64,000 nt of DNA, taken from assembly GCA_965246885.1 (NCBI GenBank), contig OZ251992.1, forward strand, positions 2,016,001 to 2,080,000, in the 5' to 3' direction. The notes below the pieces were generated by a model, which searched no databases, was not told the origin of the DNA, and worked only from the letters and a program-made list of their open reading frames with translations. Made by a program: the position numbers and the translations under genes. Positions 2,834 through 62,822 of this stretch are shown one piece after another (position 1 is the stretch's first letter; the number at the start of each line of letters is the position of its first letter). Source of the stretch: Abditibacterium sp. (lineage in GTDB: Bacteria > Armatimonadota > Abditibacteriia > Abditibacteriales > Abditibacteriaceae).

Positions 2834-4345
2834 ATGGTTGCTCGTCCGTTTTCTTGTTTCCGGCTGCTTGCGCCCCCTCGTGCGCGGCGGCGCGGCGTTT
2901 CGATGTGGCTGTTCGTCCTGTCGCTTCCGATCATCTTCGGCGTGTGCGGCCTCGTCATTGACATGGGCCAACTGCACGCCAAGCGCGCCCAAGTCCAGCG
3001 CGCTGGTGATGCGGCGGCTCTGGCGGGCGCGCAGCAATCGGGCATTGACAACACCCACGCCCAGCAGGACGGCCTTAAATACGCCGACATCAACGGCTTT
3101 AGCGCCAAGCGTGGCGACGAAGTGACCGTCACCGCCAACTACGAGTCCGCCGCCGCCGAAAACGCCGCCAACATCAACACGGTGCGCGTTCAAATCAAGC
3201 ACACCGAACCCGTCTACTTCGCGCCCGTCGCCGAAACTCTGCTCACCTTTTTGGGATGGGACAGTGGAGCGGCGCAGTTTTCGCGTGTCATTGGCACCAA
3301 GTCCGTCGCGCGCAAGTTCGTGTACTTGCCCATGAAAACCGGTGGCAACTACGGTATCGCTTCCGGCTCGCAGGCCATTGTCAACAACATCATCAACGGC
3401 CCTTATTCCGCCTACGACGACGCCGACCCCTATTCGGGCAAATATCTTCTCGACGGTAGCCCCAACCCGCGTTACTCCCAGTTCGGCGGCTACCAGAACT
3501 TCACTTTCCACGTGACCGAGGCCGCGAAAAAGGCCTCGTCCGACGGCAAGATTTATCTGCAAATCTACAGCCCCGGCCCCGGTGACAGTGGCTACGACTC
3601 AGGGATACGTCAAACGCCCGTCTTTCCCACTGGCACCACCCCGCCGCCTTGGGCGCTGACGACAACCAAATACGAAATCCTCAAAGATGGCAAAGTCATC
3701 GCTTCAGCGACGTATGACGCCAATAGTCCGTCCACCCTCAGTTGGATTACGCCCGATGGCTTTGCCCTCGACATCGGCACCTACGGAATAGGAGATTACC
3801 AAGTGCGCGTTTCCACGTCCGATGGCAACACAGGCAACGCTTACGCTCTGCGCGCGGGGCCAGCGCAAGGCGTCGGCATGGACGATGCGACATGGAACGA
3901 CCAATTCGGTGACAAGCTGGGAGCGGCTCCCGATAACGTGCTCGTGCCCATGAACGCGGATGGCCGCATGACCATCGGGTTCCAAACCAACGGCACTGCC
4001 ACGCTGACCTTGGGGCATCTCGGCCCGCAATGGGCTGGCAAGACGGTGCAAGTTGCGCACTACGATTTGGACATCGGCGCCACCAACCTTGTCTACACGG
4101 TAGACACTTTGCCCGACACCACCTTTCCCGGCACCTTGCCGCAGAACTCCATTCAAGGCAATGCCCCGCAACGGCCCGGCAACGGCATCTGGGCGACCGA
4201 TACCATCACCCTTCCCGCCGACTTTCAAGGCGGCAACCTATCCGCCAAATACACGGCGGGCGTGAGCGACCTCGGCAAAGATGGATCGGCGTGGGAACTG
4301 TTTGGCGCGGGCGACGGCGACGGCTTCGTGCGTTTGATTGAGTAA
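2834..4345 (+). CDS. TadG/Tad-domain pilus-associated protein with large extracellular C-terminal region
   Basis: RRRG followed by a hydrophobic helix and IDMG...QRAGDAAALAGA (Tad motif). Start placed at ATG 2834 within ORF 2624..4345. Confidence 0.75.
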   Translation: MVARPFSCFRLLAPPRARRRGVSMWLFVLSLPIIFGVCGLVIDMGQLHAKRAQVQRAGDAAALAGAQQSGIDNTHAQQDGLKYADINGFSAKRGDEVTVTANYESAAAENAANINTVRVQIKHTEPVYFAPVAETLLTFLGWDSGAAQFSRVIGTKSVARKFVYLPMKTGGNYGIASGSQAIVNNIINGPYSAYDDADPYSGKYLLDGSPNPRYSQFGGYQNFTFHVTEAAKKASSDGKIYLQIYSPGPGDSGYDSGIRQTPVFPTGTTPPPWALTTTKYEILKDGKVIASATYDANSPSTLSWITPDGFALDIGTYGIGDYQVRVSTSDGNTGNAYALRAGPAQGVGMDDATWNDQFGDKLGAAPDNVLVPMNADGRMTIGFQTNGTATLTLGHLGPQWAGKTVQVAHYDLDIGATNLVYTVDTLPDTTFPGTLPQNSIQGNAPQRPGNGIWATDTITLPADFQGGNLSAKYTAGVSDLGKDGSAWELFGAGDGDGFVRLIE

Positions 4346-4953: not shown

Positions 4954-5121
4954 CCTGTCAACGACTCACCCATGCCCCGGACGTGTCAACACGGGCCAGT
5001 GAACGGATGGCGGGCCTGTGTCATTCGTTCGCCCATGTTTGTGGCCGCTTCGCCCATGTCTGTGGCTCGTTGACCGGCCTGTGTTATTTGTCCGCCCATG
5101 CCGGTCATTCATCCGCCGACC
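4954..5121. repeat. 21-bp-period degenerate repeat array 1 (about 8 units)
   Basis: In-register units such as TGTGTCATTCGTTCGCCCATG, TTTGTGGCCGCTTCGCCCATG and TGTGTTATTTGTCCGCCCATG; resembles arrays 2-5. Confidence 0.7.
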
Positions 5122-6128: not shown

Positions 6129-9100
6129 TTATGGCTTGTGGAGCAATCCGGCAACCGTTTCGACCAATTCCAACGCGCCGACGGGCTTGGATAAGTGCCG
6201 CTCAAAGCCCGCTTCGAGGGCGCGGGTTTGGTCTTCGCCCGATGCATACGCGGTGAGGGCGACGGCGGGCAGGGTGAAGCCGCGCGCGAGCAGTTCGCGG
6301 CGCAGTTCCAAGCCGTCCATATCCGGCATCCCGATGTCGGAAACCAGCGCATCGGGCGCGAACTGCGCGACGATCTCAAGGGCGGCCTTCCCCGTTCCGG
6401 CCAAGCGGATGTTCGCTCCGGCTTCTTCCAACAGACGCGCGAGCATTTCGCGCGTGTCCGGTTCGTCGTCCACCACGAGCAATCGCACGCCCTTCAAGCG
6501 GCCTTCCAACGGGCGCAGTTGTTCCATGAGCGGCGGTGCATCGGGCGCTTCTCCCTCGGCCAACAGGGGGATTTCGACCCAGACGGTCGCGCCTTGGCCG
6601 CGTCCGGCGCTGTCGGCGCCCGCGTGCCCACCGTGCAGTTGAACAATGTGTTTGACAATGGATAGCCCCAATCCCAAGCCGCCGGTTTTGCGGGTCGAAC
6701 TGGAGTCGCCTTGACGGAACCGCTCGAACAAATGGGACAAAAGTTCGGCGTCTATGCCCGTTCCGGTATCGCGCACTTCGAGGCGCGCTTGGCCGTTCTC
6801 CTGCGCGAGCACGACGCGGATGTGCCCGCCCGCCGGAGTGAACTTAATGGCGTTTTGAAGCAGGTTCCACACGACCTGTCCCAAGCGGGCGGCGTCGCCA
6901 CGCACCCACGTTTCGGGTTGCGCTTCGACTTCGACGGCTAACCGCTTATCACTCCACACGGTGCGCAACGACTCGACTTGGCGGCGCACGAGTTCGTCGA
7001 AGGAGATGTTGGCCAGTTCGAGACGCAGTTTGCCCGTTGTGATGCGCGAGACGTCGAGGATGTCGTTGACGAGTTGGGCCTGCGCGAGGGCGTTGCGCTC
7101 GATGACGTCGTAGGCTTGGGTGCGCAGTTTTTCGTCGGCTTCGGCGGAGCGGAGCAGTTCGAGCCAGCCCAGAATGGGGGTTAGGGGCGTGCGCAGTTCG
7201 TGCGACACGACGGCGAGGAACTCGTCCTTGGCGCGGTTGGCGGCTTGCGCATCGTCGCGGGCGCGGCGCGCGAGGTCGCGGGCGTCTTCGGCTTCTTCCA
7301 AGGACTGTTGGGCTTGGTCGCGGGCGATTTGGGCTTCTTGCAAGAGGCGCGCGTTGTCGGCGGTGAGGGCAAGGCGGCGCCCAAGCTCTTCGGCGAGTTC
7401 GAGGGTGTCGCCGTCAAAGGGCAGTTTGGGGTTGCAGGCGAGCCAAAGCATGACGCCCACCACGCGTTCGCGCGCGGCAAGCGGGGCGACGATGGCACTT
7501 TGGACGTCCATTTCGGCGATCAGCGCGCGGTAAGCGGCGCTCACGGGCAGGGCGTCGGGGGCACCGAGGTAGCCGGATGGATAAAGCGTTGCCCGGCCCG
7601 CCGCGAGGGTGGCGGACACGTTCCAAGGCAGCTGGGGGTCGCTTTGGAGCAGTTCGCGCAAACGCGCGGCGAGGTCGGCTTGCGCGGTCTCTTGGGGATG
7701 GGCGATGGCGACATGCTGCAACAACCCGTCCGCGTCAGGAACGGCGATGATGCACCAATCGGCGAAGCGCGGCACACATTTTTGCGCGACGGCGTTGAAA
7801 ATCTCGTCCTCGTCGAGCGCGGCAACCAACACGGAGCCGACTTCGGCGAGCAAACGCTGCGCTTCGGCGGCCCGCGCGCGGCCCGTCACGTTGTCAAAGA
7901 CCGCGACGGCGGCGGTGATATGGCCATCGCTGTCCCGGATGGGCGCGGCGTTGATGCGAATGACGCCCAAATCGCCGCCGCCGCGTTCTATGACGAACTC
8001 TTCGCCGCGCACGACTTCGCCGCTTTGCACCGCGCGCGCGAGCGGCCACTCATGACCTTCCAAGGGGCGACCGTCGAGGTGGAAACCGCGATACGCGGGG
8101 GAGTACTCTTCGGTGCTTTGCACGCTGCGGTACGGGTGGCCCCAAACCTGCGCGACTTGATCGTTGCCAAGAATCAGGCGGCCCGACGGCGCTTCGGCGA
8201 TGACCACTCCCGACGGCATTTGTTGCAAGATGGCCTCGAAGCGGGCGCGCTCGGTTTCCAACTGGGCGAACAGCCGCTCGCGCTCGACTTGGCCGCGCAC
8301 GCGGTCGGTCTGCTCGATGAGTATGGCGCCCACCCCCATCATGTCGCCGCTATCCGTGCCGCCCACGCGGACTGGATACAGGCCCATCGTGCAGTGCCGA
8401 AAGGTAGCGGGATTGTCGGGCGTGCCTTCGGTGAAGTCCTGCAAGTGCGAGGGGACGCCGCTTTGCCAGACCTCTTCCAGCATCACTTCGACGGTTGGCC
8501 CCAGTGTGGGAAACAGGTCGGACGTGCTTCTGCCAAGGTGCGCTGTGACGGTCAAGGAGTTGATGCGCGCCATTTCCGCGTTGACGAGCACGTAGCGGTG
8601 CGCGCGGTCGAACAGCCCAAAACCAACGGGCGCCGAGTCGAGCAGGGTGTTGAGCAGGGCGAGCGATTCGCGTTGGCGCTGGGCTAATTCGCGGCTTGCT
8701 TCGTCCAAGCGCGTGCGCTCCAGCGCTTGGGCGCAACTCGCGGCGAGGGTTTCCAAAAAGGTGCGCTTGACGGGGTCGAAGTCGCGCGCTGCATCGAACG
8801 ATAAGCCCATGACGCCCAACACTCGTCCATCCAAGCGCAGCGGTAGTGCTACGAGCGCCTTCGATCCCGATGCCGCCGCGCCGCGCAAAACCGGGAAACG
8901 CGCGATGGCTTCCTCCTCGCTGACGTCGCCCACCCAGACCGGCTCCTCGGTGCGAAACGCCTGCGCAATGGGGGTTTTGTCTTCGACGTTCATGCGCTCC
9001 CACCCCTGCGACGATTCGGGGGGATAGCCGCGCGTTTGCGACAAATGCAGATAGGTCGCTCCGTCCTCGTCGCGCGGCACCACGAAGATACCCGCAAAAG

Positions 9101-17445: not shown

Positions 17446-18210
17446 ATGTCGTCTGCGCAAGCCCTTATTCGTCATCTCGAAGACAACTCGCTTCCTTTGC
17501 TGCAAGATGTGCTATGCGATGTTCGCGCCACCGGCGGGGCGTCGCTAAGCGGCGTTTCCGATGGCGATTTGCAAGTCGCCCTTTACACCGTTCTCCTCAA
17601 AGTCGTGGACGTTTTGCGCGACAAGGCCGGAAAAAACGACGCTATCCGCCCTGACCTGCGCGCCATCTACTTGCGCTCCGTCCGCGACATGATGAACCTG
17701 ATTGACAATCAAAGCGCTTATACCACCGGTCACACCGAGGCCGTCGTGTCGCACGTGGGCAGTATCGGTGGCATGATGGGGTTGCCCGACGCCGAAATCG
17801 AAGAGTTGGAAGTCGCGGCGTGGATACACGACCTCGGTCTTATCAACCAAAGTCCCCGGTTGGCCTCCCTTCCGCGCACCCTCACCCAGAACGAACTCAA
17901 TGGCGCCCGCCGACACACAACAGTTGGCGCCGAAATGATTCGCCCCGTCGAGTTCTTAGCCCATCTCGTGCCCGTCGTGCGCTACCACCACACCCGCTAC
18001 GACGGCCAGAACACCCCCGGCGAACCCAAAGGCGACGAACTGCCGCTTGGCGCCCGCCTCATCAACCTCGCCGACGCCTACCAAGCGATGCTGGAGCCGC
18101 GCGCTTATCGCCGCGCCCTCACTCGTACTGAAGCCCTTTCCGAACTCGAAAAAGGCGCGGGCGCCCAGTTCGACCCCAACCTCGTCCCCTTCGCCCACAA
18201 CTTAAGCTAA
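17446..18210 (+). CDS. HD-GYP domain protein with degenerate motifs
   Basis: YTTGH, HDLG, HHTRYDG, LPLGAR, ADAY and QFDP motifs. Confidence 0.85.
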   Translation: MSSAQALIRHLEDNSLPLLQDVLCDVRATGGASLSGVSDGDLQVALYTVLLKVVDVLRDKAGKNDAIRPDLRAIYLRSVRDMMNLIDNQSAYTTGHTEAVVSHVGSIGGMMGLPDAEIEELEVAAWIHDLGLINQSPRLASLPRTLTQNELNGARRHTTVGAEMIRPVEFLAHLVPVVRYHHTRYDGQNTPGEPKGDELPLGARLINLADAYQAMLEPRAYRRALTRTEALSELEKGAGAQFDPNLVPFAHNLS

Positions 18211-18218
18211 CGGGCGCC

Positions 18219-18407
18219 GACGGACGTCTGGGAATCGGTGACAGAGTTCTGGCGCTCGAAGACGGACGTCTGAGAACCGGTGACGGACATGCGGGAATAG
18301 CTGACAGAGACGCGGGAATGGATGACAGAGGCGCGGGAATCGCTGACAGACATGCGAGAATCGGTGACAGAGGCGTGGGAATGGGTGACAGACGTCCCGC
18401 ACCGCAA
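18219..18407. repeat. 21-bp-period degenerate repeat array 2 (9 units)
   Basis: GAC(A/G)GA recurs exactly every 21 bp at 18219, 18240, ... 18387; consensus about GACAGACRYGCGGGAATCGGT. Confidence 0.9.
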
Positions 18408-18444: not shown

Positions 18445-19731
18445 ATGAAAACAGTTGGCATCGGGATTTTAGGATTGGGCACTGTGGGCGGCGGCACCTT
18501 TCAGGTGCTCCATCGCAACCGCGCTTTGATAGAAAAACGCTTGGGCGCACACTTGGAACTGCGCGCCGTCGCCACGCGCACCCCCGCGCGCGCCGATAGT
18601 TGGGGTTGCCCCCCGGAACTTGTCTCGAACGACCCGGACAAGGTGTTGAACGACCCAAACATTGAGATCGTTTGTGAACTCATCGGCGGCATCGAACCGG
18701 CGCGCGAGTATGTTTTGCGCGCGCTCAAAGCGGGCAAGTCGGTCGTTACGGCCAACAAGGAACTCCTCGCCAAACACGGCCCCGAACTGCGCGCCGCCGC
18801 CGACCAAGCCGGGGTAGATCTCCTTTTTGAAGGCGCCGTTGGAGGCGGCATCCCCTTAATTAAACCACTGCGCGAGTCCTTGGCGGGCAACCAAATTGAG
18901 GAAGTCATGGCCATACTCAACGGCACGACGAATTTCATCCTCTCGAAAATGACGCGCGAGAGTGCCGACTATGGCGCCGTCCTCGCCGAAGCGCAGAGCT
19001 TGGGCTACGCCGAAGCCGAGCCGTCCAGCGACGTGGACGGCTACGACACGCAATACAAATTAGCCATCGTTGCTGGCATTGCCTTCGACTCGCCCATTGA
19101 ATTAGACGACATTTACCGCGAGGGCATCACAAAGGTAAGCGCGCGCGACATCGAATACGCGGCGGAGTTGGGCTACGCCATCAAACTCTTGGCCTTGGCG
19201 CGGCGAAACGAGGCGGGCGCGCTCGAACTGCGCGTGCATCCCGCGCTTTTGCCCCACTCGCACCCCCTCGCCAGCGTGAATGAAGCGTTCAACGCCGTTT
19301 GGGTGCGCGGCGACGCGGTCGGCGAAACGATGTTCTACGGGCGCGGCGCGGGTGCCCATCCCACCGGCTCCGCCGTTGTGGGCGACTTAATCGAAGCCGC
19401 CAAAAACCGCTTGCGCGGCGTGCGAAATCTCGACCACGCCCCCATAAATAAAGCCCCGATGCTGCCCTTTGCCCAAGCCGTTACCCGCTTTTGCGTGCGG
19501 ATGCAAGTCAAGGACAAACCCGGCGCCATCGCCCAAATCGCGGGCGTCTTGGGCGACTGCGGCGTTTCCATCGAGTCCATCGTGCAGCGCAAAACCGAAG
19601 GCGGCGAAGCCGAAATTTTCTGGATGACCCACCACACGAATCAACGCGCCATGACCGAATCGCTGTCGGGTTTTGCGGGCTTGGAAGTCGTGCGCGAGGT
19701 CAGTTCGGTGTTGCGGGTGGAGGGGGAATGA
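18445..19731 (+). CDS. hom: Homoserine dehydrogenase with C-terminal ACT domain
   Basis: GLGTVG, VTANK, EGAVGGGIP, NGTTN, GRGAG and DKPG motifs. Confidence 0.96.
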   Translation: MKTVGIGILGLGTVGGGTFQVLHRNRALIEKRLGAHLELRAVATRTPARADSWGCPPELVSNDPDKVLNDPNIEIVCELIGGIEPAREYVLRALKAGKSVVTANKELLAKHGPELRAAADQAGVDLLFEGAVGGGIPLIKPLRESLAGNQIEEVMAILNGTTNFILSKMTRESADYGAVLAEAQSLGYAEAEPSSDVDGYDTQYKLAIVAGIAFDSPIELDDIYREGITKVSARDIEYAAELGYAIKLLALARRNEAGALELRVHPALLPHSHPLASVNEAFNAVWVRGDAVGETMFYGRGAGAHPTGSAVVGDLIEAAKNRLRGVRNLDHAPINKAPMLPFAQAVTRFCVRMQVKDKPGAIAQIAGVLGDCGVSIESIVQRKTEGGEAEIFWMTHHTNQRAMTESLSGFAGLEVVREVSSVLRVEGE

Positions 19732-34389: not shown

Positions 34390-34413
34390 AGAACACGCAG
34401 TTTATGGCGCCGC

Positions 34414-34539
34414 GACAGACACCCCGCACCGACTCACCGCCATCAGCGACTCGCCGACAGACGTCTGGGATTCTTCGACAGACGTCTGGGATTCTTCGAC
34501 AGACGTCTGGGATTCTTCGACAGACGTCTGTCATCGGCT
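34414..34539. repeat. 21-bp-period repeat array 3
   Basis: Three exact copies of GACAGACGTCTGGGATTCTTC (34456-34518), then the palindrome GACAGACGTCTGTC; another in-register GACAGAC at 34414. Confidence 0.9.
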
Positions 34540-34592: not shown

Positions 34593-34664
34593 AGCGGAAG
34601 ACGGGATTTGAACCCGCGACCCTCAACGTGGGAGGTTGATGCTCTACCCCTGAGCTACTTCCGC
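34593..34664 (-). tRNA. tRNA-Gly (anticodon CCC), no encoded CCA
   Basis: Acceptor stem GCGGAAG/CTTCCGC, D-stem GCTC/GAGC, anticodon arm TCAAC-CTCCCAC-GTTGA, T-loop TTCAAAT. Confidence 0.96.
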
Positions 34665-52934: not shown

Positions 52935-53100
52935 CGTCAGTCGGCGGCGTGCATGTGTCACCCAATGGCGCACGTCTGGGAACCACCGGCAGACGTGTGT
53001 CATCGCTCGGCGCATGTCTGTCACCGAATGGCGCGCGTCTGTCACCGAATGGCGCGCGTCTGTCACCGAATGGCGCGCGTCTGTCGTTGCTCGGCGCGCG
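52933..53100. repeat. 21-bp-period repeat array 4 (about 8 units)
   Basis: Three exact copies of TCTGTCACCGAATGGCGCGCG (53017-53079) flanked by in-register degenerate units. Confidence 0.9.
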
Positions 53101-62667: not shown

Positions 62668-62687
62668 AAATCTTTCATTCGCCGCCT

Positions 62688-62822
62688 TCTGTCATCCATT
62701 CCCGCACGTCTGGCACTGGTTCCCACACCTTTGTCACCCATTCCCGCACGTCTGTCACCGGTTCCCGCGCCTCTGTCACTCGGCGGCAGACGTGCGGGAA
62801 CCAGTAACACACGTCTGTCTCC
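62688..62822. repeat. 21-bp-period repeat array 5 (about 7 units)
   Basis: TCTGTCA-like starts at 62688, 62709, 62730, 62751, 62772 and 62814; consensus TCTGTCACCSRTTCCCGCACG. Confidence 0.88.

Follow-up and report, generated by a model that had tools for sequence, protein, structure and literature searches.

Intergenic arrays of 21 bp dyad units and a weak 21 bp motif lattice in the chromosome of an Abditibacterium sp., consistent with a putative polymerising DNA-binding protein

The window, i.e. the whole 64 kb stretch that was analysed (G000:C1:2016001-2080000), belongs to the genome G000 of Abditibacterium sp. (3.56 Mb, 62.5 % GC, 92.7 % complete), in which genes were predicted with a home-made caller. 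An earlier note on this DNA had described nine repeat units in 21 bp register between an HD-GYP gene and hom, together with four related arrays elsewhere in the window; all five arrays were recovered here, and weaker units around the second of them reach the wider limits that had been claimed. The features, in window positions, were as follows.

17497-18210, plus strand: HD-GYP-type gene, C-terminus and stop position conserved in four of four relatives
18218-18401, no strand: focal array of nine 16 bp dyad units with 5 bp spacers, period 21, PWM units in register
18445-19731, plus strand: hom (homoserine dehydrogenase), 3' of the focal array
5008-5086, no strand: array core of four strong units, extended by weaker ones, in the gap between an MBL-fold gene and rmlC
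34413-34533, no strand: six-unit array that separates a tRNA gene from an O-antigen ligase gene
52945-53086, no strand: seven-unit array, 10 bp past the DUF3137 stop and ahead of yqeY
62679-62820, no strand: seven-unit array, 11 bp past the DUF6785 stop and ahead of a SurA-like PPIase gene
1-64000, no strand: weak 21 bp lattice with repeats masked (comb z 10.0, with z from -0.7 up to 2.2 for combs of period 18-20 or 22-24)

The focal array begins 7 bp past the stop codon of the HD-GYP-type gene, which it did not alter, since the C-terminus and stop position of that gene are conserved in the relatives. It was spanned by one short-read contig with no differences (the sequencing run may be from the source sample), and no strain variant was seen in the short-read contigs of one sequencing study. 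The array at 34413-34533 includes 3.6 identical, recent copies. Comparison with orthologous loci, as the earlier note had proposed, revealed array-free junctions in relatives: no such 21 bp array lies upstream of hom in their loci, the MBL-fold gene/rmlC junction measures 24-30 bp without an array in G010 and G012, and the DUF6785/SurA-like PPIase junction of G003 is array-free at about 70 bp. At the relatives' loci L019, L023, L017, L020 and L022, the gap preceding hom holds other inverted repeat elements of short period (7-10 bp). The window has a sixth period-21 region (7230-7360), which lies within the gene for a hybrid histidine kinase and may represent either a coding heptad or a member of a different array family.

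The symmetrised unit reads YSVCRSAC|GTSYGBSR and then NYSRN, and its two dyad axes are separated by 10.5 bp; 21 bp amounts to two helical turns of DNA. A PWM trained on G000 itself identified 470 units of at least 14 bits, compared with 36 in a shuffled genome. Among 798 PWM hits, spacings of 21, 42, 63, 84, 105 and 126 bp were seen 379, 310, 227, 161, 106 and 59 times, respectively, and the next best spacing three times, with no paired hits in the shuffled genome. In this way, 113 arrays of the dominant motif were found, most frequently of seven units; arrays scored at least 25 (n=106) were used for spacing, and profiles were drawn from the 99 of these that had four or more units. The claim that the arrays lack indels held in large part, although some indels exist: of 391 successive distances no longer than 130 bp, 387 were multiples of 21. 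A scan that used no motif picked out 219 period-21 regions, and periods 19, 20, 22 and 23 yielded none. The two sets combined comprise approximately 247 period-21 arrays, one per 14 kb, which formed one cluster of 147, further clusters of 11, 5, 5, 4, 4 and 4, and 47 singletons; about 141 fell outside the dominant PWM set, many of them solitary or in small families. No pair of arrays exceeded 82 % in-register identity (median best 73 %), and the edge profile showed decayed units only, with no conserved array ends seen. Units were more alike within arrays (0.64) than between arrays (0.51), which points to local duplication. Among the other over-represented repeats of G000 are a CRISPR-like one, present about 217 times, and REP-like palindromes of at least two families (40-60 copies each); one of these families flanks both FN3-type genes described below.

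Ninety-nine of the 113 dominant-motif arrays were intergenic, in 58 co-directional, 25 divergent and 16 convergent gaps, and the other 14 overlapped called genes. The earlier generalization that arrays lie between co-directional genes therefore describes the window, where 34413-34533 conforms only if the tRNA gene at 34593-34664 is counted, but not the genome. Likewise, many arrays adjoin stop codons, as had been noted, but a terminator-like hairpin preceded or followed only 10 of 56 co-directional arrays (crude script). The possibility that arrays were carved from C-terminal tails was rejected, the stops being conserved in all three genes compared. One seven-unit array forms the Ser/Thr-rich linker of a 1698-aa glycoside hydrolase (L297, G000:C1 340308-345404), and two orthologues have unrelated linkers of that same length; other arrays occur within a CheA-type protein and two Ig-domain-containing proteins.

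Arrays avoided one another. The coefficient of variation of inter-array gaps was 0.67 against a null value of 0.97, matched in none of 5000 nulls, and the wider set of about 247 arrays was also evenly spread (0.66 compared with 0.96). Neighbours closer than 4 kb numbered 0 within the family (21 expected) and six across families (27.5 expected), and depletion around arrays reached about 9 kb both within and across families. An exception is a group of six period-21 arrays within 13 kb (L290, G000:C1 1495920-1509018), where no partner gene (see below) was found among the three neighbours scanned. Arrays were evenly distributed with respect to distance from parS, with neither origin clustering nor terminus avoidance. 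A 72 kb contig, C2, also bears arrays and a lattice (z 12.8), so its evolution has been subject to the regime that acted on the main contig.

With arrays masked, the motif could still be followed weakly, in exact 21 bp register, over some 3 kb of coding and non-coding sequence. The in-register PWM excess was +1.34 bits at 11-15 periods from an array, +0.85 at 31-50, +0.75 at 51-80, +0.42±0.08 at 81-120 and +0.31±0.08 at 121-160 periods, then about 0; shifted phases gave values of about 0 or negative and random positions about 0. Model-free autocorrelation, also with arrays masked, gave z of 25 at lag 21, 8.0 at 1050, 3.2 at 2100 and 0.0 at 3150, and the excess persisted for pairs of bases in different genes (z 25.1) and for coding paired with non-coding bases (z 19.6). 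Blocks of 20 kb with z>2 numbered 163 of 174 at period 21 and two of 174 at period 24, and combs at periods 10 and 11 did not exceed a z of about 1, whether in G000 or in relatives (the comb was not designed for AT-tracts). Within the window, the in-register score was positive in nine of the 10 array flanks, with z above 2 in only one; genome-wide, 47 of 198 flanks had their best phase in common with the array, where chance predicts 1 in 21. Flanks matched the motif of the family and not that of the array they adjoin (own minus others, -0.06 to 0.09 bits more than three periods away), and the dinucleotides enriched in them coincided with those of the unit (GA at positions 1 and 5, TC at 9 and 13). 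The signal was weak per site and even along the chromosome, fading in low-GC islands (the two weakest blocks lie at 2.52-2.56 Mb, GC 0.55-0.58). Lattice strength did not fall with distance from arrays, being equal more than 20 kb from any family array, and neighbouring arrays were out of mutual register (one of 98 at 0 mod 21); the chromosome is therefore a patchwork of domains of a few kilobases.

The lattice excess was present at third codon positions (+0.31 bits) as well as at first and second positions (+0.42 bits) and carried on into the second gene. In 94 orthologue pairs, the third-position maximum z was 3.06 in G000 and 2.05 in the relative (p 6e-11), compared with 2.00 and 1.98 in a period-24 control. 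The third-position bias was mostly a choice of C versus G, with GC content hardly changed, and third-position identity did not decay from lag 21 to lag 63. Gap lengths were also affected: the classes 0, 1 and 2 mod 3 were skewed in G000 (246/96/139 for co-directional and 86/73/33 for divergent gaps) and flat in relatives (35/41/28 and 10/7/11, in a sample of 158 gaps). Lattice frame usage predicted the divergent (p 0.61) and convergent (p 0.18) gap classes, with an imperfect fit for co-directional gaps (p 0.005).

The lattice was thus described from one genome, relatives being sampled in part. It was not found in the 52-587 kb sampled from each of G012, G009, G004, G010, G003, G019, G299 and G160, although lag 21 alone was raised in some relatives. 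An exact 13-mer of the motif was absent from all 40 relatives searched; a two-unit pattern with 77 occurrences in G000 was seen in three of 400 other genomes, one of these being a chance coding hit, and a three-unit ACGT pattern occurred 80 times in G000, against a maximum of 12 across 400 further genomes from the phylum (up to 23 for reversed patterns used as controls). On these counts, and with orthologous junctions empty, the arrays are lineage-specific. Isolated arrays of the same build were detected in G233 and G299, and dispersed arrays away from partner genes in G019 and G299, with hardly any in the samples of G012, G009 and G004. Viral contigs gave no matches to the array pattern, and a pattern scan of a genome collection gave a dyad array in none of the 121 loci among the matches listed, 7 bp repeats being dominant. 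A metagenome scan (run without a control pattern) returned 83 loci with 21 bp ACGT-core arrays in unrelated organisms; their neighbours were diverse (120 proteins scanned), and five or six arrays adjoined unannotated helical-looking proteins. The comb gave no clear lattice in 17 metagenome sets; the metagenome contig L212 reached a z of 8.7, mostly from its first 2 kb (remainder, z 2-3.7), which, read antisense, suggests a chemoreceptor-like coiled-coil gene. In the organism represented by L212 and L221, an array of 16-19 units with CACGTG dyads lies directly 5' of lexA, and its unit number differs between these two contigs, which are 97.7 % identical.

Arrays were also associated with a superfamily of unannotated helical-rod proteins, with or without an FN3 domain. 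Two such G000 genes, C1 525622-526317 and C1 1335829-1336473, have an array directly upstream, and the product of the former is predicted to fold into a long helix plus an FN3 domain (pLDDT 85.7). At 12 family-level loci, an array lay upstream at 21 bp period in eight (C1 525622-526317 included) and at 22 bp in two, and was lacking in two truncated loci; among 22 phylum-level loci, three of which repeat family-level ones, 13 had an upstream array and none a downstream 20-22 bp array. Each partner gene has its own array sequence, one in G299 having CACGTG dyads, and the dominant motif was absent upstream of the G000 partner genes, including both FN3-type genes. Promoter-like sites lay between array and partner gene at both loci scanned.

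An all-helical family is weakly related to the FN3-type proteins (profile E 2e-5, small set). Its core gene was present in all 13 genus genomes, in none with an upstream array; 20-21 bp arrays accompanied eight of 11 assessable extra copies in relatives. Two extra helical copies in G000 have no adjacent array; further upstream, at 2.2 and 2.8 kb and past other genes, are arrays that belong to one family of five members. The helical core protein matched generic bundles only (top Z 9.7). Arrays before divergent FN3-type genes have a period of 22 in G003 (L312/L324) and G008 (L313/L325), and three partner arrays of G019 (L377, L378 and L412) have a period of 20 or 20/21; these period-20 and -22 arrays are natural variants of the ruler. 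Upstream periodicity was weak (0.45-0.48) at FN3-type partner genes with an internal stop (L328 and L337 of G278, L333/L340 of G009), which suggests that arrays decay on gene loss. HU was encoded by a single copy in G000 and likewise in several relatives, and the histone fold PF00808 was found in none of the 13 genus genomes.

A shared motif held in integer register across genes and strands means that something must repeatedly measure 21 bp along double-stranded DNA, and a dimeric protein polymerising in two-turn steps would be the simplest such ruler. On balance, we favour the view that a selected 21 bp motif lattice runs through the chromosome and that the arrays are strong anchor or nucleation sites of a putative polymerising protein. 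The proposal in the earlier note of a binding platform for a polymerising protein thus proved the best-supported reading, the register extending kilobases into flanking genes. A putative dimeric protein that reads the motif would load on high-affinity arrays and polymerise in two-turn steps for a few kilobases. The lattice would have been written by selection, not by phased mutation alone, because gap lengths have shifted towards phases that keep neighbouring genes in lattice-compatible frames. Arrays would lengthen locally by 21 bp duplication at sites already in register, and a second array near the first would add little, hence the spacing. Since lattice strength is flat with distance from arrays, the arrays may not be needed for nucleation. 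The lead candidate for the protein is, by association and tentatively, a member of the helical-rod (±FN3) superfamily, in which case the lattice would be a gene-autoregulating array system spread over the chromosome; against this candidate stand the core gene without arrays in all 13 genus genomes and the relatives without a lattice, among them G019 and G299, in which partner genes are numerous and some arrays dispersed while the comb gave z of only 1.5 and 0.6, respectively. In its widest form, which is conceivable though we would not bet on it, the proposal amounts to sequence-encoded chromatin: a protein domesticated from a helical-rod/FN3 array cassette would coat most of the chromosome in registered filaments of kilobase length, nucleated every ~14 kb, selection for the lattice would have altered which codons are used, some amino acids and the lengths of intergenic gaps, and newly acquired DNA would be unmarked.

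The most serious alternative, though an improbable one, is a neutral footprint, in which mutation or repair is biased at 21 bp intervals by some positioned enzyme or other protein, leaving the lattice passive and the arrays as by-products or selfish satellites; it still implies a phased protein lattice. The largely C-versus-G nature of the third-position bias with little change in GC fits such a footprint, as does a signal that is weak per site, even along the chromosome and lowest in low-GC islands. Point mutation alone, however, does not yield a mod-3 skew of gap lengths that is present in G000 and flat in relatives; the mutual avoidance of arrays, which a footprint does not readily explain, and the array that fills a coding linker at the length found in two orthologues also speak against it. 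We give rather less credence to a 21 nt ruler, i.e. slippage or templated conversion, set by replication, repair or a partner protein, that copies sequence one period away from any seed and spreads outward. The arrays outside the dominant PWM set, the individual array sequences of the partner genes and the greater likeness of units within arrays are all as such copying would leave them. For the lattice it is disfavoured, because flanks fit the family motif and resemble their own array no more than others; in addition, third-position identity is undiminished from lag 21 to 63 and the motif signal is equally strong more than 20 kb from family arrays. Local 21 nt copying is nevertheless the likely route by which single arrays lengthened.

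The remaining explanations fared worse. That the arrays are a REP- or MITE-like mobile element, or an RNA hairpin element of 3' untranslated regions, would suit the many arrays that abut stop codons, the empty orthologous junctions of relatives and the somewhat better folding of convergent arrays (mean z -1.17, with near-perfect inverted arms in two of 15). Outside convergent gaps, however, arrays folded no better than random units (z -0.17 for the focal array), the 25 arrays between divergent genes have a DNA-level context, near-identical copies and conserved ends were absent, no array matched Rfam, and the lattice would be left unexplained. We therefore regard this as very improbable and, as the main role of the arrays, largely refuted; the suggestion of a mobile interspersed repeat in the earlier note is likewise not supported. 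Least credible of all is that arrays are relics or live copies of heptad-repeat (seven-codon) coding sequence and the lattice a periodicity of proteins. One frame does predominate after upstream stops (57/24/7, n=88), eight arrays lie inside called genes, lag 21 alone is raised in some relatives, and the L212 signal comes mostly from the putative coiled-coil gene. Motif hits arising by chance within genes, however, show the same frame ratio (108/48/17), stops occur on both strands in the favoured frame of 14 of 106 arrays (about 11 expected by hand estimate), and the C-termini of upstream genes are unchanged in three of three genes compared. For the lattice, a heptad origin is ruled out by two tests: the signal joins bases of different genes and of non-coding DNA, and orthologues lack it.

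No report of a kilobase-scale 21 bp lattice, or of arrays before FN3 genes, was found in the main texts of the open-access literature searched. Whether a sequence code exists for packing bacterial chromosomes is an old open question, the known signals being weak, of about 11 bp period and about 100 bp long. If the favoured reading is true, the unexplained 20-21 nt satellites would gain a function and a link to a protein superfamily that has gone unstudied, and a second code would be seen to have the strength to mould both synonymous sites and the distances between genes. The lattice is directly testable by footprinting and pull-down, because it has a defined motif, an exact period, kilobase reach, anchor arrays and clean negative congeners.

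Several known systems load a spreading protein at strong sites or arrays, namely the high-affinity sites of H-NS, ParB/parS, Noc, ParR/parC and TubR/tubC; we know of none in which nucleation and spreading have left a fixed-register imprint over kilobases. The parC and tubC arrays lie 5' of the gene for their own binding protein, and the partner-gene arrays resemble them in lying upstream of a gene, but the partners are unrelated helical-rod/FN3 proteins. G000 has one ParB_N gene and five parS-like sites at 477-482 kb, so the arrays are not parS, and the partition role suggested earlier is unlikely. CRISPR arrays have identical repeats and unique spacers of 20-40 bp; here the spacers are 5 bp long and common to the units of one array. 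In type III toxin-antitoxin systems, the array is transcribed with the downstream gene and a terminator lies between them, a position in which promoter-like sites were found at both loci scanned. REP/BIME sequences are species-specific, dispersed and mostly intergenic short repeats. The BrickBuilt MITE of Porphyromonas gingivalis has a 23 nt tandem core, according to the accessible part of its description (PMC4596501). The G000 arrays share with REP/BIME and BrickBuilt a species-specific, dispersed and mostly intergenic distribution, but have no shared leader, tail, terminal inverted repeat, near-identical copies or hairpin excess, and some lie in coding linkers.

As set out in the accessible part of the article, the 'structural code' is a genome-wide helical-phase periodicity of about 10-11 bp, found mainly in coding DNA at first and third codon positions and read as a packaging code (PMC4132750; Lehmann et al., 2014); its signal is based on AT-tracts, non-integer and about 100 bp long. 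The G000 lattice is likewise carried by third codon positions, but it is an integer 21 bp, consists of a GC-rich dyad, is coherent for about 3 kb across genes (excess to lag 2100) and is locked to arrays. The closest precedent, and one that partly makes the arrays an already catalogued repeat family, is the class of constant-size 20-21 nt satellites, which in the accessible part of its description comprises many short, mostly non-coding arrays of one period, in several species-specific families per genome with a short shared motif (PMC8161180; Subirana & Messeguer, 2021). The same part of that paper remarks on two helical turns and puts forward a protein whose polymerisation depends on the period, the hypothesis reached here as well, and its tables may include arrays like these; the class also appears in the accessible part of PMC6749651. 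The G000 arrays share its constant period, several families, species specificity and mostly non-coding location. They differ from the satellites, as far as the accessible part of PMC8161180 describes them, in being strictly of 21 bp, with one dominant dyad family, mutual avoidance and a register that runs into flanking genes. The arrays alone are thus a new member of a described satellite class, and the lattice is what is new.
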